DNA of 64,000 nt from a virus (Duplodnaviria; Caudoviricetes). Where the stretch lies: IMG/VR virus record IMGVR_UViG_3300002220_000062, positions 1-64,000 of that record. The stretch is one strand, 5' to 3'. The first letter of the stretch is position 1, and each line of letters starts with the position of its first letter. A model generated the notes under the pieces. That model ran no database searches and was not told the origin of the DNA. It saw nothing but the letters and a program-made list of their open reading frames with translations. Positions 4,194-31,963 of this stretch are shown one piece after another. Position numbers and translations under genes: made by a program.

Positions 4194-6473
4194 CTATTTG
4201 TTTACATTAAAAACATTTGTTTGATTATCATTTACTTGTGGAAAGTTTCTTCTAAAAAATGAATCTTCTGATAAAGACCTGGTTGGATTATTTTCATTAT
4301 TCTTAGCTGAAATAGTTCTCTTAGTTCTATCTTCTCTTAAAATAAATAACATAATTCCTGCAGATACCCTATCAAAGTTACCATCAGAGTTCCACTTTAT
4401 ACATTCTTCTATATATGCTAAACTACGAAGTCTATGAAGATTAAGTCTTGCGTCATCTTCATCACCGTGTGCTTTAACTAACATCCAGTCTGCTTGTAGT
4501 AATCTACCCCACTTGTTTATATCTTTATTAGCGTGAGTTCCCTTAGCTCTATTACCATATAGATTAGTTTGTTTAACAAAATCCATATCTTTTAGTATTT
4601 GGGGAGTATCAGCCAAGTAGTGTAGTGCATTAAATTTATCAAAGTAACTAAACAAACCTTTTAAGTTGCTCTCATAATTTGCTTCTGCATTATAGAACTT
4701 CAGTGTTCTTAATGCTATTTCATAAGCCTCATTTGCTGTTCTTGGTCTACCAGAATACTCTGCTACAATTCTATCAGTAAAAGTATCTAATACTAATATA
4801 CTAAATAATGAACCTCCAGCGTCAGCATCAATAGGGTCAATCCCTGCAATATACCTACCTCTTATAATCTGCCCCTCACCATTCTTACGTGGCATCTCAA
4901 ATATCTCAAGGCATCCAGTTCTATCTCCTGTAGAAATATCATATGAACGTAATGGAAATTTTGAAGCGGTAGGTCTCCAAACTATATCTCCTGTAGAATC
5001 TGCAATTAAATCACCTACATAATGTTCAGCAAGAAATGCTTCTCTCTTAACCATTATGTTTTCTAAATACTCCTTTAAGTCGGCTACTGGAAATACTGTT
5101 CCCTCTGTACGCATCACTGCCTCTTGAGGTGTCATTGGTTCCTCAGCTTTCTTCTGAGTAATAGCCCTAGCATCAGATGAACTATATTTTACTTGATACC
5201 TATCAAGACATATTTCAACCATTGCTTTGATTACATCTGGCTCACCATTAACAGGGTCATAACAATTATTCCTGTTTAAATATGCACCCCAGAAGAATCC
5301 ACATCCAGTGCTACCATCTGTATTCTTATCATAAACATTAGGAATACCAAAGATATTATATGCACCAGGATTATAAAATAGTTTTTCAGAACCCTCAAAT
5401 GAAGCCCCCTCTGTACCACCTGTACCACCTGCTAACATATAACCAGATGCTATTCCCCCATCTTCTACAGCTTTTCTATTTACGTTCCAAGCTTTTTCAA
5501 GATTAGGAAATAATCCATCTTCTTCATAATGTATAAATGGACCCCTGATACCCCTAGCCTTATCTGGATTATCCTTTAAGGATATACCAAATACTGAGGA
5601 TAAGAAACCACGTCTAGTACCATATTCATCTTCGTAACCTAATTGGACTTCCATAGCTCTTTTCCCATCTACTAATCTCATACGAGGTAGTGGTGTATTG
5701 TCAGCTATCCAGTCTAACGTATCTAGGATTTTACCCCATATACCTTTATCTCCAGATAAGAAACCTTTCTCAGATGCTAAATGGAAGTTTGGGTTACCAG
5801 ACCCTGGAAGAACATACATATTTCTAGGACTCCAAGCTGCTGCTTTAAATGAGAAACCTACACCCCTAGTCTTTAATAACTTTCCGTGTTGTCCAGCTTC
5901 TTTACCAGCATGTACATAGTGAAAGAATAAATAATCACCTAACCATACTTTAGGAAACTTTCTAACCCTTTCCCCTTTCTTTTTACCTTTAGTACCCTCA
6001 GCTTTTTCTACCAACCAAATTGGTGTGTAGTTCCAATAGAAGTAAAGTTCTCCAGGTATCCATTCACCATCTGGTCTTACTAATCCATGTTTCCATTTAT
6101 ACAATTCTTCTTTCCAGAACATTGCATACTCAGACTTAGGATTTCCATTTGGTATGATATTAGTATACTTACCATTCTTTTCAAAGAATATGGCTTGTTC
6201 CCTAAAGAAATCCATATCTTCTAATATGTGTGGATTATGTATATCTACAACCCTTCTACCATCTTCATAATCTACTTCTTTACCTGCTTCATTAGTATAA
6301 GTCATTATAGCTTTATTTGCTATAAATCCTCTTTCCTCTTCAGGTGCAATTAAGTTTTGTATAAATTTTACTGTTGATATATATTCTAAAATATCATCCC
6401 ATACTTCCTTAGGTAAAGATTTCTTTAACTCCTCAGTAATAGGGGTCTGATATGAATTCATTTTTATTTCCAT
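4194..6473 (-). CDS. terL: Terminase large subunit
   Basis: LKTRGVGFSF Walker A-like segment, YEEDG Walker B-like segment, GGTGG motif, RNase H-like nuclease domain (IAGIDP, NYESN, GNFDRVSA). Confidence 0.92.
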   Translation of the reverse strand: MEIKMNSYQTPITEELKKSLPKEVWDDILEYISTVKFIQNLIAPEEERGFIANKAIMTYTNEAGKEVDYEDGRRVVDIHNPHILEDMDFFREQAIFFEKNGKYTNIIPNGNPKSEYAMFWKEELYKWKHGLVRPDGEWIPGELYFYWNYTPIWLVEKAEGTKGKKKGERVRKFPKVWLGDYLFFHYVHAGKEAGQHGKLLKTRGVGFSFKAAAWSPRNMYVLPGSGNPNFHLASEKGFLSGDKGIWGKILDTLDWIADNTPLPRMRLVDGKRAMEVQLGYEDEYGTRRGFLSSVFGISLKDNPDKARGIRGPFIHYEEDGLFPNLEKAWNVNRKAVEDGGIASGYMLAGGTGGTEGASFEGSEKLFYNPGAYNIFGIPNVYDKNTDGSTGCGFFWGAYLNRNNCYDPVNGEPDVIKAMVEICLDRYQVKYSSSDARAITQKKAEEPMTPQEAVMRTEGTVFPVADLKEYLENIMVKREAFLAEHYVGDLIADSTGDIVWRPTASKFPLRSYDISTGDRTGCLEIFEMPRKNGEGQIIRGRYIAGIDPIDADAGGSLFSILVLDTFTDRIVAEYSGRPRTANEAYEIALRTLKFYNAEANYESNLKGLFSYFDKFNALHYLADTPQILKDMDFVKQTNLYGNRAKGTHANKDINKWGRLLQADWMLVKAHGDEDDARLNLHRLRSLAYIEECIKWNSDGNFDRVSAGIMLFILREDRTKRTISAKNNENNPTRSLSEDSFFRRNFPQVNDNQTNVFNVNK

Positions 6474-13107: not shown

Positions 13108-13346
13108 TATATTGTTTTTAAACTAAGTGATAATATCGACTTACTATTTAATTGGTAGAGGGTTGTAACCTCTCTTAACGCTTGCATGAAGTCCATTACC
13201 ACATACTGGAACTCTTGGGTACTTATAACCTTAATAGTATTATCAAACCATTGTATATTATAATTACCATCTTCTCTTCTTGCTCTTCCACTTACTACTA
13301 TTCTAATAGTTACTGGTTTAATTACATCTATTCTTACTTCTTCCAT
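13107..13346 (-). CDS. Hypothetical protein
   Basis: 79 aa, TAATG coupling to the next gene. Confidence 0.5.
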   Translation of the reverse strand: MEEVRIDVIKPVTIRIVVSGRARREDGNYNIQWFDNTIKVISTQEFQYVVMDFMQALREVTTLYQLNSKSILSLSLKTI

Positions 13347-13482
13347 AATTCCATTGCTTTTTTAAATTGCTCTAATCCTTTAATACCTACAAAGATAACT
13401 ATCTCTCTTTCCTTATAAGTTTTTAATTTATTGAAAAAGATAGGTTCTTCATCTCTCATTCTTTCTAATATTCCTTTCATAC

Positions 13483-13788
13483 TTATTTAATATAAGGTTC
13501 TTTTATAGCTGAATAATCTGTAAATATATGCATTATTCTATTCATCTTACACTTAGATAAAAATCTATCCTTAAATTTTGTTAATACTTCAAAATTAAAA
13601 GGTTTATAAAATCTATAATTGTCTGTTGTATATACTAATAGATTAGACTTCTCATCCTTTACAAAAGTTTCAAGGAATACTGTTCCATATTCATTTGAAT
13701 AGTTGATTCTAAGATTATAATTTGGGTATCTTAAAAATATATCCTCTGTTGCTAAATTTATTAATTCTATTCTTTTACTTTCTTCCAT
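13483..13788 (-). CDS. Hypothetical protein
   Basis: 101 aa in the operon. Confidence 0.5.
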   Translation of the reverse strand: MEESKRIELINLATEDIFLRYPNYNLRINYSNEYGTVFLETFVKDEKSNLLVYTTDNYRFYKPFNFEVLTKFKDRFLSKCKMNRIMHIFTDYSAIKEPYIK

Positions 13789-13928
13789 TATAATTTAGTT
13801 TTTAATAATCCACATTGTAAGCATAGTATTGGTTTTGCGTATCCTCATCTATGTTTACAATTAGCTTGCTTTTTATCTTCTTGTATCTTCCAAGCATTAA
13901 ACATTGCTTCTCTTTGTGATTCTTCCAT
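13788..13928 (-). pseudogene. Small zinc-finger ORF interrupted by an in-frame TGA
   Basis: MEESQREAMF...NCKHR*GYAKPILCLQCGLLKTKL*; the final TAA overlaps the ATG of the next gene. Confidence 0.45.
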
Positions 13929-13940
13929 AATTATTAATTT

Positions 13941-13966
13941 AAAAAGGGGGTCACTACTCCCCCTTT
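13941..13966 (-). terminator. Intrinsic terminator-like hairpin
   Basis: AAAAAGGGGG-tcactact-CCCCCTTT; U-tract on the minus strand. Confidence 0.55.
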
Positions 13967-14161
13967 AAGCACCAATGTAGCGAAATTCCCTAACTTGCAC
14001 TCTGGTACACTTATTATATAGCTATTAGTGATTTAGCTCCATATTATATCTTCTTCTTTTACCCATTCAATACCAAGTTCATCTGTGTATTGTACTTTAG
14101 CATCTGGCTTTAATGTGCCAATAAGTCCTCTTTCTTTTATTATCTTTTCTTTCATATACTA

Positions 14162-14192
14162 CAAAGGTACGAAATATATTTGACATATCCTA
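14162..14192 (-). promoter_or_regulatory. Repeated promoter TAGGA-N18-TACCTTTG at the strand switch
   Basis: First promoter of the leftward arm; same motif as the other copies. Confidence 0.65.
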
Positions 14193-14322
14193 ATTTATTT
14201 TAATATTTTTTAAAATTTTTTTTGGAATTTTTTTAACTTTGACGAAAGAGCGAGATAACTTAATACTCACCCCCCACTCTTTTTTAACTTTGAGCATACC
14301 CCTATGGTATGTGTATATTATT

Positions 14323-14739
14323 ATGAATGCCAAGTTATTCGTGAAAGACGAACAATCCCTTTGGGAAAATGGCGAAATCTTTTCAGCAGGTGTTTACGCA
14401 GAAGAAGTAACGCTTGATTTAGAAAGTGGTTTTGAGAATGAAGAGAAATTCCTTTATTGGGTTAAAACCCGTAATAAGGAACGTGCTATTGCAAGTGCCA
14501 ACGAAGTTGTTAAACAACTTAACAAAGGTACATTGTGTGTAGCACGAGTGTTCAGCGATGAACCTTTCTACTTAGACCAAGAGTCAGACATCAATCCAAC
14601 AACCAATGTTGTGTTGAATAGATACTCTAAAACCATTTTGTGCACACCTGATAAAAGAGCTTCACTACACCGTAGTTTCGTAGTAGCACCACCATCAGTA
14701 GCATTGGTAGCTGAACCACAAGTTCAAGCAGAAGCCTAA
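14323..14739 (+). CDS. Hypothetical protein, first gene of the rightward arm
   Basis: ATG at 14323 (MNAKLFVKDE...) inside the track ORF; visibly higher GC than its neighbours; followed by a terminator. Confidence 0.6.
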   Translation: MNAKLFVKDEQSLWENGEIFSAGVYAEEVTLDLESGFENEEKFLYWVKTRNKERAIASANEVVKQLNKGTLCVARVFSDEPFYLDQESDINPTTNVVLNRYSKTILCTPDKRASLHRSFVVAPPSVALVAEPQVQAEA

Positions 14740-14747
14740 CAAGCAGT

Positions 14748-14780
14748 TAAAGAGTGTGTAACAGCACTCTTTTTCTTTTC
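14748..14780 (+). terminator. Intrinsic terminator
   Basis: AAAGAGTG-tgtaacag-CACTCTTT followed by a T-tract. Confidence 0.7.
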
Positions 14781-14974
14781 TTTTAAAAATGGATGAGTCA
14801 ACAGTCTTATTTGGCAGTGACTTTTATAGTCAAGTAGCTTCTAATCAGTACTATTAGGTAGTATTTGTTGTGATTAAGTGTGATTGGTAGTGATAGTGGT
14901 ACTATCCATTCCTCAATCATTCCATCTATTTCATCATCACAATATTTAACATCACTAAATTTAATATAGCTATT

Positions 14975-15172
14975 ATGTCTAATAACAAAAAGTATTTATC
15001 AGAAGAAGTATTATTTCGTACTAAATGTATTAATGATAATAATACATCATTTCTTACTATTAAATGGTATGATGTTATTGATTTTACTAATACAACATAT
15101 CTTATTAGATTTAATAGTGGAGGTGCTAAATGGTATAACAAGAATAGATTTACAGGTTATTGGAAACAATAA
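14975..15172 (+). CDS. Hypothetical protein
   Basis: 65 aa early-region ORF. Confidence 0.4.
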   Translation: MSNNKKYLSEEVLFRTKCINDNNTSFLTIKWYDVIDFTNTTYLIRFNSGGAKWYNKNRFTGYWKQ

Positions 15173-15411
15173 TCTAAATATACACTAAGTGTTAAATAAA
15201 CACAAATAAAAAACTTAATAACTTCACAAGTCATTGAGTGCACCAGTTTTTACTATAAGCAAATATTAAATAAGCGCACATTTATGTGTGAAAAGAATAA
15301 TATATAAAAGTAGTTTTAGGTGTAAAATGCAAATTAAAAAGGTTTAATTAAAAATATAATATGAAGATTAAAATATAATAAACTAAACATTTAACTAAAT
15401 AAATAAATCTT

Positions 15412-15927
15412 ATGAAAACATTGTCTCAACTAACACTATACTTAATAAGTATGGTATTAACAGTAATTGTATTAAACAGTGAAATATTATCTCCTGATGT
15501 TGAATCAGGATTAAGTATTATAGCAGGAATTGTATTAGGTTTTGCTTTAACATCTACACTAGTAGATATGAAATCAAGAAACAGAAGAGAACAATTAAAA
15601 CGTATTGAACGCATTAAACAAGCAATAATTAAAGCTTATCCTGATGCTACAGATTTAAGTTATGAATCTAATAATATAACTCACGGTATATATTATAGAC
15701 TACCAAAAGCTAAACTTAGAAGTTTTAGACCAATGTCTGAAAATATAGTTGATGATAATTTAATATTATATTTAATATTATCAATTGTATTAGGTATTAT
15801 AATCCGAATTGTATCAGTAATACATAATGAACCTATTTTAGGTTATATTGGTGGTATTTCGGCATTAGTCCTTGCAATTGGATTATCTTTACAGATATTT
15901 AAGAATATTAAAACAAGTGATATATAA
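15412..15927 (+). CDS. Membrane protein (about 4 TM helices)
   Basis: Two hydrophobic hairpins flanking a soluble loop. Confidence 0.55.
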   Translation: MKTLSQLTLYLISMVLTVIVLNSEILSPDVESGLSIIAGIVLGFALTSTLVDMKSRNRREQLKRIERIKQAIIKAYPDATDLSYESNNITHGIYYRLPKAKLRSFRPMSENIVDDNLILYLILSIVLGIIIRIVSVIHNEPILGYIGGISALVLAIGLSLQIFKNIKTSDI

Positions 15928-17873: not shown

Positions 17874-18238
17874 GGGGGTGCCTGGTTTTGACAAGGTATA
17901 TGAATTAATATTAATCAGCCAGAGAGATAACTGTAAACTAAGGTGATTTTATATAAATGGAAACATTAATAAACAAATCGTAGCTAATATGAACATAGTT
18001 CATAATATTTTAAAAGCAGAACAAGGTTCTGATATTGTAGAATTTAAATTAGCAATTGCAGCCTAAGCAATAAAAATAAAGGCAAGGAGTTTAGTAGTTC
18101 TTGTAAAAATTACTTGGTGGAAGACACTATTAAATTAGTTGTCCCTATCTAACTAAAGAGTTTAAACTATAGTAAAGCTGTAATAATTAATATTAAGGAA
18201 ATGTTTTGGACAGGGGTTCGAGTCCCCTCACCTCCACA
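17874..18238 (+). ncRNA. ssrA: tmRNA
   Basis: 5' GGGGGTG-CCTGGTTTTGAC pairs with 3' CACCTCC-A; T-arm AGGGG-TTCGAGT-CCCCT; internal tag frame 17959..18066 ends in LAIAA*. Confidence 0.92.
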
Positions 18239-18530
18239 TAAAGTAGTAGTTAGTGCAAATGTTTAGCACCTCATGTCAGTAGACGAAACAATTATATAAC
18301 TAATATCGAAAGATTTATAATTGGAGAAATGTAGATTAACAAACTACACTACTACTTAACATCAAAAATAACAAAGAAGAGGAAACGCGTGAGCTATTCT
18401 TCCATTACTCTGAAGGTATCTGTATTGAGCAGTACAATTGAATGAGGTCTCAACTAGTGGGTCAAGATATTCGGTACCTCTTCTTTTTATTATATTAGTA
18501 AATAAAGGTTTAACTAAACAAAATTTAACA

Positions 18531-26668: not shown

Positions 26669-27349
26669 ATGAAATTATGGCACATAAGTGACACACATGG
26701 ATATCACGAACTATTAGCTATACCTGAAGATATTGATATAATAATTCATTCAGGTGATTTTAGTAATAGATTTGATGTTTATAAAAATGAACAAGAAGCT
26801 TTAAATTTTTTACATTGGTATGGAAATCTTAAAATTAAACACAAAGTTTTAATTGCAGGAAATCATGATGCTTATGCATTTGTATTACATAAAAAGTTTA
26901 AAGAATGGTGTAAACATTATAATATTTAATATTTAGAAAATACATATATTACTATTGAAGGGATAAAAATATTTGGTAGCCCAAATACACCTACTTTTGG
27001 TAATTGGTATTTTATGAAAACTAGAGATAAAATGGATAAACATTGGTCTAAAGTAACAGAAGAGATAGATGTATTTGTAGTACATGGTCCTCCAAAAGGT
27101 ATCTTAGATTTAAGTTATTCTAAAGACCATAGATTAGAGTTTTGTGGATGTAAAAGTTTACGAAATCATATTTTAAATAGAATAAAACCTAAATTATGTT
27201 TATTTGGACATATTCATAATAATGAAGATATTATTAATGCAGGAACTATGAAATTAACAGAATATAATACTATTTTTAGTAATGGGTCTGTAGTAACAGA
27301 TAGGAAATTTGGACAATTAAGTAGTAATGGTAATATATTTGATATCTAA
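26669..27349 (+). pseudogene. Calcineurin-like metallophosphoesterase split by one in-frame TAA (26927-26929)
   Basis: SDTHG, HSGD and IAGNHD in the first half; VHGPP and FGHIH in the second. The frame is continuous across HYNI*YLENTYITIEGIKIFGSP. Confidence 0.8.
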
Positions 27350-28167: not shown

Positions 28168-28323
28168 ATGAGTTTATATACAAGAGTCTATGATGATATT
28201 GTAGATAGAAGAAAAAGGTTACTCAATGGGCAAATAAATTGCATCCCTTGGGGATTACCTAGATTTGAAAATGAATTACCTGGTATTGAACGAGGTAAGT
28301 ATTATTTAATAACAGCAAATAGT
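28168..28323 (+). CDS. DnaB-like replicative helicase, exon 1
   Basis: MSLYTRVY...NCIPWGLPRFENELPGIERGKYYLITANS; stops at the start of the Walker A loop. Confidence 0.85.
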
Positions 28324-28625
28324 TTTTAGTTTATAATAATTTAATTTGTAAACAAACAGAAGCTACGCTAGATGGTGACATCTAGATGATTATCCTTTGA
28401 ATTGCTGGAAACTCTTAACAAGTAATGTTGAAGACAATCAGCAGCCAAGCTTAGAAATAAGAAGGTTCAACGACTAGTGCAATAGAGCACGTACACTATA
28501 AGTTAATGATAGTGGAAGCGGAGGACATCTCTATGAGATGAAGATATAGTCTAGTCTATATGGAAACATATAGCAGTTCATAAGAGAACGTATATAAGAG
28601 TTACGTCTTATATAGAATATAAACG
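28324..28625 (+). mobile_element. Group I intron 1 (ORF-less, IA2-like, 302 nt)
   Basis: 5' exon ends in U; P1 UAGU/GCUA; P AAUUGCUGGAAA; Q AAUCAGCAGCC; R GUUCAACGACUA; P7.1 and P7.2 hairpins; S AAGAUAUAGUC; P9 CUAUAUG-GAAA-CAUAUAG; terminal G at 28625. Confidence 0.92.
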
Positions 28626-28634
28626 AAAGTGGGT
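28626..28634 (+). CDS. DnaB-like helicase, 9-nt micro-exon 2 (Lys-Val-Gly)
   Basis: AAAGTGGGT lies between the terminal G of intron 1 and P1 of intron 2 (GGGU/GCCC); it restores Walker A ANSKVGKT. Confidence 0.82.
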
Positions 28635-28708
28635 AGAATTTGCCCCTCTGGTTAGTAATAATTAGAGCAAACTCAGAATCCTAGAAATAGGGGTTAATTA
28701 ATAATTAA

Positions 28709-29266
28709 ATGGAAATAATAAAAGCAGGTCAAAAACCAAAAATGGGAGATTTTGTATATGTTGTACAAGATTATACTAGTTTTACATATAAAGATGCTAA
28801 TGGTAATTGTAAACATTGTTATCTTGATAATATGTCTTCACTTTGTTACACCTTAAAAGATGCCGATGAAAAGAAACAAGCAGAAATACTTGAATTATTT
28901 AAAAGTATTTTTGATGTTAATTCAAAAGTTACCTTTGGTGTAAATCTAACAAGAATGGAGTATATTGAGACTCTTAAAAAACATTTTACTTTAATATCTT
29001 GTGTAGAAGTTCCAACAGGATATGGAACACGTCAGAAACAATATCATGCTATATTTTTTACAAATTCTATGGCTAGAGATTATGGTGGTACTTATAGAGG
29101 TAGATTAAATAAAGAAGGTGTAATTGTAAGCACTATGAAACATAGGAAAACTATAAATCCTGGTGATAAAATTGACACTGTAATTAATGAAAGTGATATT
29201 GAAAAGATAATGTCTTATAAGAGTAAATATCATCTACAAAAATTTCTTAGAACAAAAATTAATTAG
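28709..29266 (+). CDS. Intron-borne hypothetical protein A
   Basis: 185 aa, enclosed by helix GGUUAAUUA (28692) / UAAUUAGCU (29260); no nuclease motif seen. Confidence 0.6.
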   Translation: MEIIKAGQKPKMGDFVYVVQDYTSFTYKDANGNCKHCYLDNMSSLCYTLKDADEKKQAEILELFKSIFDVNSKVTFGVNLTRMEYIETLKKHFTLISCVEVPTGYGTRQKQYHAIFFTNSMARDYGGTYRGRLNKEGVIVSTMKHRKTINPGDKIDTVINESDIEKIMSYKSKYHLQKFLRTKIN

Positions 29267-29300
29267 CTAACGGGGAAACCCTTTATAAAAATAAGTAAAA

Positions 29301-29600
29301 ATGAAAAAAACTACAACAGCGTGTTGTGCGTTATGTCAAATTAATAATGTAAATAATGATACAACTATTGAAGAGTTAGAATATGCAATTGACATATTAA
29401 CTAATCAGAAAGAGAAAAATACAGAAGTAGGTATTACAACAGGTAATGGACAAACTTCAGTATTTGTTATAGTTTCTCCTGGAGAATATGTACTAAGTAG
29501 AAATCTAAAAAAATTAGGATTTGAACTTAAACACACATTTGAAAGAAGAAAAGGATATCCACCTGTTGGAGAATTAGAGATGTATATTAAAAATCTTTAA
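29301..29600 (+). CDS. Intron-borne hypothetical protein B
   Basis: 99 aa in the P5 extension; CCALC motif. Confidence 0.6.
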   Translation: MKKTTTACCALCQINNVNNDTTIEELEYAIDILTNQKEKNTEVGITTGNGQTSVFVIVSPGEYVLSRNLKKLGFELKHTFERRKGYPPVGELEMYIKNL

Positions 29601-29602
29601 TT

Positions 29603-30166
29603 ATGTGGGAGACTTATGAATGGGGAAGGTCAAGATATGACATTCTCTATAAAGATGGTAGTACAGAAAAGATAAAGAGTGCATGTTTTGCAGCACTTAC
29701 TCGTACTACTAATAGCACAATTAAGCGTATAAAATTATATGATTTTAAATGTAAACCAACTATAGAATATCGTAAATGGTATTTAGAATATGTTAGTGAT
29801 ATGTTACAACTAGAAGAGGTAGAAATTACTGAAGACTATATAGCATTTGACGCATATGATAATAAAAACAAAAATATGTTAGTATTATCATTATTTAGAT
29901 TTTTATATGAACAACTTGGTTATGTTACACCTATAATTCAAACACATGAGGTATTTTTAGAACCTTTAAGAAATGGAGAATGTGAATATATAGATAAATT
30001 AGAAAGATTTTGTTACTTCTATAGTAAAATAGAAACAAAAAAAGCTTATTATTCTACTATACATTCTTGGTATCCTAAAACTACTGTTATTAAATCAACA
30101 GAAGATTTCTTAAAGATTAAAAAACTACCATCTGTTAATTCATTTTTTACTTATGAAAAAAACTAA
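29603..30166 (+). CDS. Intron-borne hypothetical protein C
   Basis: 187 aa in the P5 extension; its stop codon is part of the P5 3' strand UAAAG. Confidence 0.6.
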   Translation: MWETYEWGRSRYDILYKDGSTEKIKSACFAALTRTTNSTIKRIKLYDFKCKPTIEYRKWYLEYVSDMLQLEEVEITEDYIAFDAYDNKNKNMLVLSLFRFLYEQLGYVTPIIQTHEVFLEPLRNGECEYIDKLERFCYFYSKIETKKAYYSTIHSWYPKTTVIKSTEDFLKIKKLPSVNSFFTYEKN

Positions 30167-30431
30167 AGACAATCCCGTGCCGTCACTTGATTTTAATATA
30201 ATAAAAACTAATACATTTAAAGAAGATGATGAAATATGTCATATAAGAAATTTTATGGTAGGTTTACCTTACTTTTTTAAAGCAACTGATTATGATGTAA
30301 AACATTATTCAGGAAAAAATGGTATTTATTTGTTAAAACAATACGGTGTAGAGACTAACAATGAGAAACCTAAATCAGGACACATGACAGAAATATCATG
30401 GGGTAGTAAAAAACATCCTGATGAAGATTAG
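30153..30431 (+). CDS. ORF overlapping the intron catalytic core (may not be coding)
   Basis: 92 aa reading through Q, P6, R and P8; DNPVPS and GVETN are translations of Q and R. Confidence 0.3.
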   Translation: MKKTKDNPVPSLDFNIIKTNTFKEDDEICHIRNFMVGLPYFFKATDYDVKHYSGKNGIYLLKQYGVETNNEKPKSGHMTEISWGSKKHPDED

Positions 30432-30518
30432 GTTTATGAGATAGTCCGAACTATATGGTGACATATAGAGCCAAACAGAAATGATTTGGCTGTGAAAATT
30501 AAACAAAAATTAATAAAA

Positions 30519-31019
30519 ATGAAATTATATTTAAAAGATTATAAAAAAAAATCAACTACATGTGTAAAAAGTTTTTTATTAGATTATTATAAGAATGTTT
30601 TCAGTTTAGAAGGAACACCTGCTACATACTTTAGTCCTATATGTGACGAAAAAGATTTGCAATGTTCTGCTAGAAAATCACGTTCATTTACAGATATGTA
30701 TTATTTAACTAAAACTTATTTTCCAACATTAACAGAAAAAACTTTTACTAAGAAATTAGTAGAAGTAATGAAAGTGCATAAGTTAAAATTCTTATTTTGT
30801 AATGGTGCAAAAAAAACAGTAATACATGCCAGTTTTGGTACTAATAATCAAAGAACAAGTAACTTTTTTAAGTCATTAGTATTTGATTATTGTGGTTTAT
30901 TAAAGACTCAATATAATCTAAAAGGTAATGGAGAGCATTCTATAATAGATGTAATAGAATTTTCTGGTTATAAAAATGATGTAATTGAAAAAGAACTTAA
31001 CCGTTTAAGGAACACATAA
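30519..31019 (+). CDS. Intron-borne hypothetical protein E
   Basis: ATG at 30519 after P9.1; ends 8 nt before the 3' splice site. Confidence 0.6.
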   Translation: MKLYLKDYKKKSTTCVKSFLLDYYKNVFSLEGTPATYFSPICDEKDLQCSARKSRSFTDMYYLTKTYFPTLTEKTFTKKLVEVMKVHKLKFLFCNGAKKTVIHASFGTNNQRTSNFFKSLVFDYCGLLKTQYNLKGNGEHSIIDVIEFSGYKNDVIEKELNRLRNT

Positions 31020-31027
31020 CAAAATTG

Positions 31028-31963
31028 AAAACTCAAATAGCCGATTGGTTATTTTTGTACAATACTATTCAACAAGTTATTGAAAAATCTCTAAATATCA
31101 AATTAAAGATATTTTATTTTAGTTTAGAAATGTCTAAGGAAGAAAAGATGCTAGCAGCTTTCTCTAATATTATATATATTAAAGAAGGTATAAGAATAGC
31201 TCCAAAGGACCTTAGAAGTACTAAATCAGATAAAATATTAAGTGAAGAGACTTTAGAGTTAATATCAAAATATAAACCATATTTCGACAAAATTGAAGAA
31301 ATAGTTGAATTTATAGATGATATTAGAAATCCCACAGGTATTTATAAATTTGTTAGAAGTTACGCTATTGCAAATGGTGTACAACATAAGAAAACTATAA
31401 ATATTAAGGGTACATTAACAGAAATCGATGATTACTATGAACCAAACGACCCTGAAGAGTACGTTATGGTTTTTATTGACCATATAAGTTTGATTTCTAC
31501 CGAGGAAGAAGGAGGACAAAAGATGAATTTGCATCAATCTATTGTCAAGCTTTCTTCAGATTACCTTATTAGATTACGAAATAAATATAAATACATTCCA
31601 GTTGTTATTCAACAACAAGCATCTGCTCAAGAATCCGTAGAGAATATGAAAGTCGGAAGACTTAAACCTTCAATGGATGGATTAGGAGACTGTAAGCTTA
31701 CCCAAAGGGATGCAAATGTTATATTGGGACTATTTAGTCCTTTTCGTCATGAATTAAGAGAATACCAAGGATATGATATTACCTTTTTTAAGGATAATAT
31801 TAGATTTCTAGAAGTATTAGGTGGAAGAGAAGGTGGTGGTGGTACAGTATGTCCACTGTTCTTTGATGGAGCAGTGAATTATTTTAAAGAGTTACCAAAA
31901 CCAATGGACCAAGAAGGGCTTAGAAGCGTTTATAGTTACATTGAGAAAACAATTAAAAAATAA
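31028..31963 (+). CDS. DnaB-like replicative helicase, exon 3
   Basis: Begins KTQIADW (end of Walker A); YFSLEMS, VFIDHI (Walker B), VIQQQA and QRDANVILGLFSP motifs. Spliced product is 366 aa. Confidence 0.9.
   Translation, partial: KTQIADWLFLYNTIQQVIEKSLNIKLKIFYFSLEMSKEEKMLAAFSNIIYIKEGIRIAPKDLRSTKSDKILSEETLELISKYKPYFDKIEEIVEFIDDIRNPTGIYKFVRSYAIANGVQHKKTINIKGTLTEIDDYYEPNDPEEYVMVFIDHISLISTEEEGGQKMNLHQSIVKLSSDYLIRLRNKYKYIPVVIQQQASAQESVENMKVGRLKPSMDGLGDCKLTQRDANVILGLFSPFRHELREYQGYDITFFKDNIRFLEVLGGREGGGGTVCPLFFDGAVNYFKELPKPMDQEGLRSVYSYIEKTIKK

Follow-up and report, generated by a model that had tools for sequence, protein, structure and literature searches.

A 2.4-kb group I intron in the replicative helicase gene of a crAss-like phage with five open reading frames scattered through its ribozyme core

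The window analysed (64,000 nt, positions 1 to 64,000 of IMG/VR record IMGVR_UViG_3300002220_000062) came from a crAss-like phage, with Cellulophaga phage phi14:2 as the nearest named relative. On its plus strand, where all features described below are located, a gene for a DnaB-type replicative helicase was split, the break falling inside the Walker A codons. Exon 1 (nt 28168-28323), identified by tblastn to phi14:2 g024 and 60 related loci, comprised 52 codons and ended in ...YYLITANS. It was followed by a compact group I intron without ORF (intron 1, nt 28324-28625, at site 1, after AGT); a 9-nt micro-exon, AAAGTGGGT (nt 28626-28634), encoding Lys-Val-Gly of Walker A; a 2393-nt group I intron (intron 2, nt 28635-31027, at site 2, after GGT); and exon 3 (nt 31028-31963), which started with KTQIADW... 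and encoded the remaining Walker A residues and the RecA-like domain. In tblastn, exon 3 shared 54% identity with the phi14:2 DnaB and 44-50% with the replicative helicases of Bacteroides crAss-like phages.

Both junctions of intron 2 were fixed by 30 related loci carrying the helicase gene uninterrupted, in which exactly 3 codons, mostly KVG, lie between ANS and KTQ. Joining nt 28634 to nt 31028 gave KVG-KTQ, as in these homologues, and restored the host frame exactly; the spliced reading frame encoded 366 aa. In intron-less helicase genes, the sequence at this site is that around AATAGTAAAGTNGGTAAAAC. Among the intron-bearing genomes, the helicase exons had dN/dS values of 0.07-0.09, which suggests that the helicase is functional and that splicing is required.

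Intron 1, a second intron beyond the one described preliminarily and separated from it by 9 nt, matched the full Rfam model RF00028 with 99.5 bits (nt 28325-28573), while a whole-window search at the gathering threshold misses even this intron because of its speed filters. A DNA contig of run X8 joined nt 28323 directly to nt 28626 and represents a natural variant minus exactly the 302 nt of intron 1. The site-1 intron of relatives carries a GIY-YIG gene.

Intron 2 began with P1 (nt 28631-28645), in which GGGU (nt 28631-34) paired with the guide GCCC (nt 28642-45), the 5' splice site being marked by a U.G pair; this internal guide sequence was conserved in related loci, and UUU at nt 28639-41, as read from the sequence, could pair with AAA of exon 3 as P10. 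P1 had just 4 exon pairs, and P3 just 4-5 bp. P2 (nt 28646-67; 9 bp with a GUAA loop) was recovered by MFE folding, and its stem varied between loci with pairing kept. The 5' strand of P3, CUCA (nt 28672-75), was followed by a small hairpin, CCUA-GAAA-UAGG (nt 28680-91), which covaried (CCCA/UGGG, UCUA/UAGA, CUCCU/AGGAG), and by an 11-bp stem (nt 28692-702 and 29258-68), recovered by MFE, that closed the loop of ORF A. The P element, AACGGGGAAACC, started at nt 29269 and the Q element at nt 30170, both recognised by sequence. After J3/4, the 5' strand of P4, ACGGGG (nt 29270-75), was paired by MFE with UCCCGU (nt 30173-78), with compensatory changes in two related loci (L034 and L019), and P5 was formed by nt 29281-85 and 30164-68, also by MFE. 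P6 comprised GCCGU (nt 30179-83), supported by MFE, and nt 30343-47, after which came J6/7, and both of its strands showed compensatory changes.

The R element started at nt 30348 and the S element at nt 30438, again recognised by sequence. The 5' strand of P7, GACUA (nt 30353-57), covaried as A-U, G-C or U-A between loci, and its 3' strand, UAGUC (nt 30442-46), was contained in the partial RF00028 alignment (see below) and in the MFE fold. Covariation supported the 3' strand of P3, UGAG (nt 30362-65), pairs observed being CUCA/UGAG, CUCU/GGAG, UUCC/GGAA, CAUC/GAUG, and ACUC/GAGU. P8 (nt 30367-73 and 30428-34) occurred with six different stem sequences, pairing kept, its 3' strand again lying in both the RF00028 alignment and the MFE fold. 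P9 (nt 30451-68) and P9.1 (nt 30470-90, with the conserved loop CAGAAAUGA) covaried and were recovered by MFE. The intron closed with a 3' terminal element, (G/C)AUAACAAAAUUG (nt 31015-31027), ending in the terminal G at nt 31027 and near-identical in 15 of 18 loci. The preliminary description had placed P1-P3, P, Q, R, S, and the terminal G far apart along this region, and all were found at or within 1-3 nt of those places.

The same core elements were present in the window and in 17 related loci, and many more loci had an insertion at site 2. In most of the 17, motifs P, Q, R, and S had 0-1 mismatches, while the spacing between them varied from 25-70 nt to 0.1-1 kb. Compensatory changes were found in P3, P4 (G-C to A-U or U-A), P6, P7, and P8 among 16-17 loci, though the strands lie 0.1-1.8 kb apart. 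As judged by this comparison, the ribozyme core (P1-P10) was shown to be present and evolutionarily maintained, though cut into six pieces. With the ORFs removed, the intron was reduced to 342 nt, and MFE folding of this version gave P1, P2, P4, P5, P6, P7, P8, P9, and P9.1, with z = -6.2. These results are far from what chance would give and bear out the earlier assignment to group I.

Against RF00028, whose gathering threshold is 50 bits, the contiguous intron 2 gave only a partial match to its 3' part (nt 30318-30468, R-S-P9; 29.3 bits, E = 8e-5), the low score being due to the interrupted core. By comparison, a compact 761-nt orthologue at the same site (locus L019) matched the whole model with 67.1 bits (E = 1e-16). 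Rfam scans of the phi14:2 and Kolpuevirus loci and of the core of L069 gave no matches. The P and Q sequences of intron 2 presumably resemble those of the T4 td intron; when the compact core of L019 was compared with phage records by blastn, the matches included introns of Klebsiella, Vibrio, Flavobacterium, and Enterococcus phages, whereas T4 td was not retrieved. No RNA run was listed as containing the locus; the sole run labelled RNA-Seq looked like DNA, and the exon-exon joint was not present there.

Five ORFs, designated A to E, were found in intron 2, where four or five lying in the gaps of the core had been described. The positions proposed for A (in a helix before P4), B and C (in P5), and E (in the P9 region) held, whereas D proved to run through the core instead of lying in a loop. 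ORF A (nt 28709-29266; 185 aa) occupied the loop of the 11-bp stem between P3 and P4, and its stop codon, TAG, lay inside the 3' strand of that stem. It belonged to an orphan family with six homologues located in introns and another, free-standing, in L064; its dN/dS was 0.46, and Pfam, PHROGs, and ESM Atlas gave no lead. ORF C (nt 29603-30166; 187 aa), in L5, also represented an orphan family, with 29 homologues, none annotated, that were free-standing directly downstream of the uninterrupted helicase gene in at least 15 loci. Its dN/dS was 0.28, a PDB profile search and ESM Atlas gave no usable lead, and its TAA stop fell inside the 3' strand of P5. Thus, the stop codons of both A and C form part of helix strands, as noticed previously.

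ORF B (nt 29301-29600; 99 aa), likewise in L5, had 174 representative relatives in a broad family whose stand-alone members are about 100 aa long, homologues being free-standing downstream of the helicase gene in L056-58 and L065, and the lowest dN/dS of the set (0.11). Its predicted structure (pLDDT 82.5) resembled GNAT chains, with Z up to 9.2 and an rmsd of 2.9 A over 82 residues, covering just the C-terminal half of that fold (about residues 75-165). There was no Pfam GNAT match, and the acetyl-CoA motif A (R/Q-x-x-G-x-G/A) was absent at the equivalent alignment position; the product is therefore predicted to have a GNAT-like fold and cannot be classed as a GNAT enzyme. A PDB profile match of the B family to designed armadillo-repeat proteins (E = 4e-11) was judged a compositional or consensus-repeat artefact and rejected because the predicted fold was alpha/beta and matched GNAT halves.

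ORF D (nt 30153-30431; 92 aa) started inside the end of ORF C and ended with a TAG in the 3' strand of P8. Spanning L6 and L8, it read through P5', P4', P6, J6/7, P7, P3', and P8, that is, through the catalytic core. Over 13 loci, this frame had 1 stop in 1091 codons, versus 82 and 192 stops when the two alternative frames were read, and in many relatives the C-terminus was Cys-rich, often with CxxC...CxxC. ORF E (nt 30519-31019, ATG at nt 30519; 166 aa) was located after P9.1; its stop codon fell within the conserved element at the 3' end of the intron, at a distance of 8 nt from the 3' splice site. The E family comprised 21 intron-borne members, often two per intron, and one of them was the sole ORF of the compact L019 intron; in intron-less loci, homologues were free-standing upstream or downstream of the helicase gene. 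Its model (pLDDT 79.7) had a weak winged-helix likeness with Z below 5, a PDB profile search gave no match, and Foldseek gave noise-level hits only. Invariant residues were M1, Y4, C49, R55, S56, and C94 only, with no invariant Asp, Glu or His in the alignment; dN/dS was 0.57. As estimated from these ratios (0.11-0.57), ORFs A, B, C, and E are under purifying selection.

Searches of A to E against Pfam and PHROGs revealed no HNH, GIY-YIG, LAGLIDADG or other nuclease family, in agreement with the motif reading of the preliminary description; the positive controls, the LAGLIDADG gene of L004 and the GIY-YIG gene of the site-1 intron, were detected. The predicted folds of the two proteins modelled, a GNAT half for B and a weak winged helix for E, were not nuclease folds. 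Transposase families were detected neither in these ORFs nor in 10 representative ORFs of related introns, and tblastn of A to E against the whole phage genome gave no paralogue at E below 0.07. A scan for sigma-70 promoters and terminators, ill-suited to Bacteroidota and phage RNA polymerases, returned fewer promoter-like sites than shuffles did. As far as can be told from the lack of nuclease signatures and from weak fold likenesses, the cargo is accessory and not concerned with mobility.

The comparison with related genomes that had been proposed yielded both of the patterns sought, that is, the same intron with different cargo and free-standing cargo homologues. In relatives, the intron held other combinations of 1-6 ORFs at six or more loop positions, the same families recurring in different combinations and loops. 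In intron-less relatives, the homologues were free-standing genes right beside the intact, uninterrupted helicase gene, and no ribozyme remnants were found next to them. The same intron of L004, the closest relative (helicase 96% identical), and of L009 contained a LAGLIDADG endonuclease gene (PF03161, 3e-38) as an additional, sixth ORF at a different loop. Thus, the copy in the window would have lost, or never gained, a homing gene, and the family is otherwise an ordinary family of mobile introns.

Taken together, these features suggest that nt 28635-31027 is most probably a functional intron of the self-splicing group I type that has turned into a container for ordinary phage accessory genes. 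A decayed relic no longer able to splice, with the helicase either dead or made as two polypeptides (the N-terminal 52 aa and a C-terminal part started from the TTG at nt 31025) and the ORFs merely lying between the fragments, is very improbable. Splicing of intron 2 is deduced by sequence comparison, the contiguous intron falls below the Rfam threshold, the TTG is a possible start for the C-terminal part, and genes in pieces have a phage precedent in Aeromonas phage Aeh1, whose nrdA is reportedly split by mobE. However, the split lies inside the P-loop (ANSKVG|KT), with no obvious way of rebuilding it from two chains; the distant core helices stay paired through compensatory changes across the 17 loci; the exons are under strong purifying selection; and conservation extends to the internal guide sequence and the 3' terminal element. 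The idea that A to E are fragments of one degenerate homing endonuclease gene, to which the general expectation of one such gene per phage group I intron would lead, was refuted: they are separate families with full-length homologues of conserved length in introns and as free-standing genes, all dN/dS values measured were below 1, the predicted folds of B and E were confident, compact, and different from each other, and the LAGLIDADG gene of L004 and L009 is an extra ORF in another loop.

More weight, although still little, is given to the possibility that the ORFs serve the intron, one or more of them, most likely E or the Zn-ribbon D, being a novel type of protein that acts in homing, in targeting or as a maturase and whose free-standing copies target the P-loop of the helicase gene, as mobE does for nrdB. 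Since E is the one ORF of the minimal L019 intron, where a homing or maturase gene would be expected, its role may be in the intron's service and not in that of the phage; it is often present twice per intron, it is found just upstream of the target gene in many genomes that lack the intron, a classic layout of free-standing homing genes, and its predicted fold is weakly of the DNA-binding winged-helix type. D, for its part, has a frame kept free of stops across the core in 12 of 13 loci, and CxxC...CxxC is a frequent feature of its end. Nevertheless, such a role is unlikely: E has no invariant Asp, Glu or His, nuclease matches were obtained neither by Pfam and PHROGs nor by PDB profile and fold searches, the target site is intact in genomes with free-standing E, the mobility genes of relatives are canonical LAGLIDADG and GIY-YIG genes, and B comes from a broad family of small stand-alone proteins.

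If the intron acts as a container of accessory genes, the whole 2.4 kb would be transcribed before long-range pairing in P3, P4, P5, P6, P7, and P8 brings the core together; splicing initiated by guanosine, along with removal of the upstream intron, would then join ANS-KVG-KTQ and restore the P-loop. The cargo could be translated from the precursor, from the excised RNA, or from both. Ribosomes translating ORF D across the core, and those translating ORF E near the 3' splice site, would have to clear before the core could fold, and cargo translation and helicase maturation may thereby be coupled. Competition between translation and folding is a strong inference for ORF D only. Entry of the genes is probably explained by the scarcity of places in or near the helicase gene where an insertion does no harm, intron loops being one of them, and anything inside a homing intron would be copied along with it. 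The location may be neutral, as first proposed, or selected. A more far-reaching version, conceivable but doubtful, would make the family a gene-drive vehicle and an expression hub. Accessory genes adjacent to the helicase gene would be moved into the loops of the homing intron and copied into intron-less co-infecting phages upon homing by the LAGLIDADG enzyme of the intron or the GIY-YIG enzyme of the upstream one. Translation of ORF D through P4'-P6-P7-P3'-P8 would act as a switch rendering cargo expression and helicase mRNA maturation mutually exclusive for each transcript, thereby timing replication.

A typical group I intron either lacks ORFs or has one loop occupied by one homing endonuclease gene. 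Intron 2 shares with the classical phage introns (T4 td/I-TevI, nrdB/I-TevIII, and nrdD/I-TevII; SPO1 I-HmuI; Twort) the location in a highly conserved motif of an essential DNA-metabolism gene, the P1-P10 helices, the U.G pair of the 5' splice site, the terminal G, ORFs in peripheral loops, an in-frame stop just inside the intron, and a patchy distribution among relatives, some of which carry LAGLIDADG or GIY-YIG genes. It differs from them in having five ORFs (1-6 in relatives) instead of one, with at least six different loops in use, no recognisable endonuclease in the window copy, a core spread over 2.4 kb, an ORF running through the catalytic core, and cargo families that are also ordinary neighbouring genes. 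Free-standing homing genes and collaborative homing are known from T4 mobE with the nrdB intron and cyanophage F-CphI with the psbA intron, the mobile ORF being a proven nuclease. There, as here, the same families occur inside an intron or free-standing beside the interrupted gene, but the position-switching families of intron 2 have no nuclease signature.

Cargo other than endonucleases has precedents. A group I intron of fungal mitochondrial rnl (mL2449) houses rps3, sometimes with a homing gene, and the ORFs may overlap the core. Intron 2 is like this and the double-ORF mitochondrial introns in housing a non-endonuclease gene of the host; the fungal intron, however, is in an organellar rRNA and has a single host gene in a single loop, whereas several unrelated accessory genes are held here in several loops of a phage protein-gene intron, in a set changing between close relatives. 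IStrons, such as CdISt1 of Clostridioides difficile, are group I introns fused to an IS605/IS607 element (bioRxiv 10.1101/2023.11.20.567912). Like intron 2, they are bacterial-type group I introns with more than one ORF, all spliced out of the mRNA. Their core is contiguous at the 5' end, and a single transposon (tnpA/tnpB), placed ahead of the 3' splice site, makes up their cargo, whereas the ORFs of the window have no TnpA/TnpB transposase domains, are interleaved with the core helices, and are apparently unrelated to mobility. Because of the rps3 introns and the IStrons, the preliminary view of an undescribed system was overstated: multi-ORF and non-nuclease cargo in group I introns was known already, and what is new is a variant with five genes scattered through the core. 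In crAss-like phages, introns and inteins are known to be densely distributed, and group I introns lie in core replication as well as structural genes (Yutin et al. 2021, PMC7886860). That survey detected introns through endonuclease domains and does not cover multi-ORF endonuclease-free introns or the helicase of the marine phi14:2 clade; the gene-laden, scattered arrangement was not found in the literature searched.

The ribozyme apparently still assembles with five genes separating its helices by up to 1.7 kb, one of them crossing the catalytic core. It stretches the limits for co-transcriptional ribozyme folding where translation is coupled to transcription, and offers a naturally occurring case in which to study how ribosomes and RNA folding compete. 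Intron loops can evidently store ordinary phage genes, so that close relatives can have radically different gene orders near a core replication gene while the gene itself stays unbroken. Such introns are missed by annotation pipelines: in the reference record of phi14:2 (NC_021806), the homologous intron, 2616 nt long at about 13150-15765 and between g024 and g029, is unannotated, DnaB is annotated as truncated, starting from an internal ATG, and four "hypothetical proteins" are given. As phi14:2, which has an intron of this kind, is available in culture (on Cellulophaga baltica #14), these inferences are open to bench testing; its predicted ligated exon junction is ...AATAGTAAAGTGGGT joined to AAATCACAA...

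The 91-kb virus record, with a G+C content of about 28%, is from a crAss-like phage. The ORF at 31028-31963 encoded the C-terminal part of a helicase sharing 54% identity with DnaB of Cellulophaga phage phi14:2 (Crassvirales, Steigviridae) and 44-50% identity with the "replicative DNA helicase" of Bacteroides crAss-like phages; its neighbourhood encoded a family A DNA polymerase, a replisome organiser, a Sak4-like ATPase, SSB and a primase. The N-terminus was matched by a 52-codon ORF at 28168-28323, ending ...YYLITANS. Both helicase parts were located in 60 loci, phi14:2 and Kolpuevirus included, after retrieval of 66 related IMG/VR loci. Thirty of these had an uninterrupted helicase, in which exactly three codons, usually AAA GTN GGT (KVG), lay between ANS and KTQ and completed the Walker A motif A-N-S-K-V-G-K-T. 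Since the window has AAAGTGGGT at 28626-28634, the gene was laid out as exon 1 (to 28323), intron 1 (28324-28625), a 9-nt micro-exon (28626-28634), intron 2 (28635-31027) and exon 3 (31028-31963), each intron being preceded by U and having a final G. Among intron-bearing genomes the helicase exons showed strong purifying selection (dN/dS 0.07-0.09), indicating that the helicase is used and needs reconstitution.

The core elements P, Q, R and S of intron 2 were found where the preliminary description had placed them (29269, 30171, 30346 and 30436, respectively), and these motifs recurred at the same insertion site in 17 related loci, with 0-1 mismatches in most. Their spacing ranged from a compact form up to kilobases. 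In the compact loci (L019 and L020), P-Q-R-S fell within 140 nt of a 761-nt intron that matched the whole RF00028 model (67.1 bits, E = 1e-16), and the R-S-P9 segment of the window gave 29.3 bits (E = 8e-5). Compensatory changes were observed in P4 (ACGGGG/UCCCGU to ACGAGG/UCUCGU in L034 and to ACGGUG/UACCGU in L019), P7 (GACUA/UAGUC, GACUG/CAGUC, GACUU/AAGUC), P3 (CUCA/UGAG, CUCU/GGAG, UUCC/GGAA, CAUC/GAUG, ACUC/GAGU) and likewise P6, these counts being hand tallies on anchored segments that ignore phylogeny. P8 had six distinct 7-bp stem sequences, fully paired in 13 of 16 loci and showing a single mismatched pair per locus in the remaining three; pairing was also kept despite sequence variation in P2, a small GAAA hairpin, P9 and P9.1. 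When the four big inserts were swapped for GAAA loops, the minimum-energy fold of the resulting 342-nt RNA contained P1, P2, the hairpin, the ORF A stem, P4, P5, P6, P7, P8, P9 and P9.1 (z = -6.2 versus dinucleotide shuffles), and an internal guide, UUU-GCCC, was able to pair with both exon ends to form P1 and P10. On this evidence the ribozyme is regarded as real and maintained, and self-splicing is predicted.

The ORFs were interleaved with this core. ORF A (28709-29266) lay between P3 and P4 in a loop closed by an 11-bp stem, with the TAG stop of the ORF inside the 3′ strand; ORFs B (29301-29600) and C (29603-30166) lay in L5, with the TAA of C in the P5 3′ strand; and ORF E (30519-31019) followed P9.1, its TAA lying 8 nt upstream of the splice site within the conserved 3′ terminal element. 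ORF D (30153-30431) started in the end of C and ran through P5′, P4′, P6, J6/7, P7, P3′ and the P8 5′ strand to a UAG stop in the P8 3′ strand. Its frame contained one stop in 1091 codons over 13 loci, versus 82 and 192 stops in the two alternative frames, though the L6 and L8 inserts were often of unrelated sequence between loci; therefore the frame itself is under selection. In many relatives ORF D ended with a CxxC...CxxC motif. Relatives had ORFs at three further positions: the P2-P3 interval, the P7-P3′ interval and the P9 loop. C and D overlapped in an A-run, TATGAAAAAAAC TAAAGAC (30140-30170), and in L004, the closest relative, positions 4590-4620 read AAAAAATAAAG where the window has AAAAAACTAAAG, fusing C and D into one 236-aa ORF; slippage-prone coupling of the two is possible. 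The D frame of another relative (L005:4577-5026) carried two tandem Q...R-like segments (ESNPMLSL...NGVETE, then GNPVSQL...DVETNNGQP), which suggests that part of the ribozyme core was duplicated within the intron.

The same intron with different cargo, and free-standing cargo homologues, had been proposed as things to look for, and both were found. Clustering of all intron ORFs gave about ten recurring families in changing combinations, with one (L019) to six (L011) ORFs per intron. In the cultured phage phi14:2 the same site was occupied by a 2616-nt intron containing four ORFs (g025-g028), of which the D-like one alone was related to the window ORFs. Its reference annotation (NC_021806.1, 13150-15765) treats g024 and g025-g028 as hypothetical and starts DnaB (g029) at an internal ATG; the intron is absent from it, g024 and g029 being the two parts of a helicase that a 2.6-kb intron of the same family interrupts. 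Where the helicase was uninterrupted, these families were ordinary flanking genes, typically RepO - E - [helicase] - C - (E) - Sak4, alternatively ...[helicase] - B - E or A - E - f16 - [helicase], and no ribozyme motifs were found next to these free-standing copies. Thus, gene content is largely conserved, and what changes is position beside or inside the helicase.

None of ORFs A-E matched a nuclease family or any other family in Pfam or PHROG. ORF B was highly conserved (mean column identity 66%, dN/dS 0.11), with 174 representative relatives, mostly stand-alone proteins about 100 aa long, and its model (pLDDT 82.5) matched GNAT acetyltransferases over their C-terminal half, with Z reaching 9.2 and an rmsd of 2.9 A across 82 residues. 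ORF C had 29 homologues, none annotated, and database and ESM Atlas comparison gave no lead for ORF A. ORF E had only 15 database homologues and lacked invariant acidic or histidine residues, and its model (pLDDT 79.7) showed at most a weak winged-helix likeness (Z below 5). With dN/dS between the window and L004 of 0.46, 0.28 and 0.57, respectively, A, C and E are, as judged from sequence, real genes under relaxed constraint, not debris.

Taken with the free-standing copies, these data make a functional intron with accessory cargo the probable explanation. That the cargo instead serves the intron, as new homing or maturase proteins, is unlikely. A dead intron or a split helicase is very improbable given the paired changes in the core and the constraint on the exons. 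The preliminary description had also allowed that the ORFs might be pieces of one degenerate endonuclease; in L004 and L009, however, a true LAGLIDADG gene (PF03161, 3e-38) lay between P7 and P3′ as a further ORF, and this reading can practically be dismissed. Accessory genes may accumulate because insertions at this site do no harm in a densely packed genome, as in the landing pad first suggested; another reading is hitch-hiking on homing, because a homing endonuclease occurs in close relatives and in an intron 9 nt away.

In-frame TAG stops were located just inside intron 1 (28327-28329) and intron 2 (28653-28655). Transcription of the helicase pre-mRNA would run across both introns, and these stops would release exon ribosomes. 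The intron 2 core would assemble only once about 1.8 kb had been transcribed and ribosomes were off A-D, the P-loop then being restored by splicing. Ribosomes on D would cover the guanosine-binding core and those ending E the 3′ splice site, so that a given transcript would be either translated for cargo or spliced.

Phage group I introns classically carry no ORF or one endonuclease ORF, IStrons carry a transposon with one or two transposase genes behind a contiguous core, and the fungal rnl intron is the home of rps3. In a survey of crAss-like phages, dense introns were detected via their endonucleases (PMC7886860). Full-text literature searches turned up no account of a core interspersed with several non-endonuclease genes in any phage group I intron; the arrangement is a variation on known group I introns, not a new class.

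Intron 1 was a complete, compact, ORF-less group I intron (RF00028, 99.5 bits) ending 9 nt upstream of intron 2 and leaving the KVG micro-exon (28324-28634 with the intron). In a DNA contig of an unrelated soil-metagenome run, 28323 was joined directly to 28626, revealing a natural variant without exactly these 302 nt. Several relatives had a GIY-YIG/NUMOD gene inside the site-1 intron, and Kolpuevirus 'frurule' had an insertion bearing GIY-YIG in the same P-loop motif. The helicase P-loop codons contained at least three insertion sites inside a 13-nt span (L028:4293-6000, also L002); the L028 intron followed AAGGT at a point 4 nt upstream of site 2, with the exon continuing A GGA.

Of the 33 IMG/VR loci with a 20-nt Q-P6 word, at least three (L075, L087, L089) had an intact helicase and a core lying elsewhere, and nine more had no helicase in reach; the intron family is therefore present in other genes too. 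Cores with the identical word outside the helicase were at L075:11008-11130, L087:11546-12040 and L089 (minus strand), further such phage contigs being L070, L077-L081, L093, L095 and L097, and ORFs again lay between or around the core elements.

Elsewhere in the window, a metallophosphoesterase gene (26669-27349) formed one frame with a single in-frame TAA at 26927-26929, and was intact (225 aa) in two relatives (L012, L056). As no suppressor tRNA was found within the window, the stop may mark a pseudogene, reflect a sequencing error or be read through. A tmRNA was located at 17874-18239 (RF00023, 83 bits), with the tag peptide AEQGSDIVEFKLAIAA predicted by ARAGORN.
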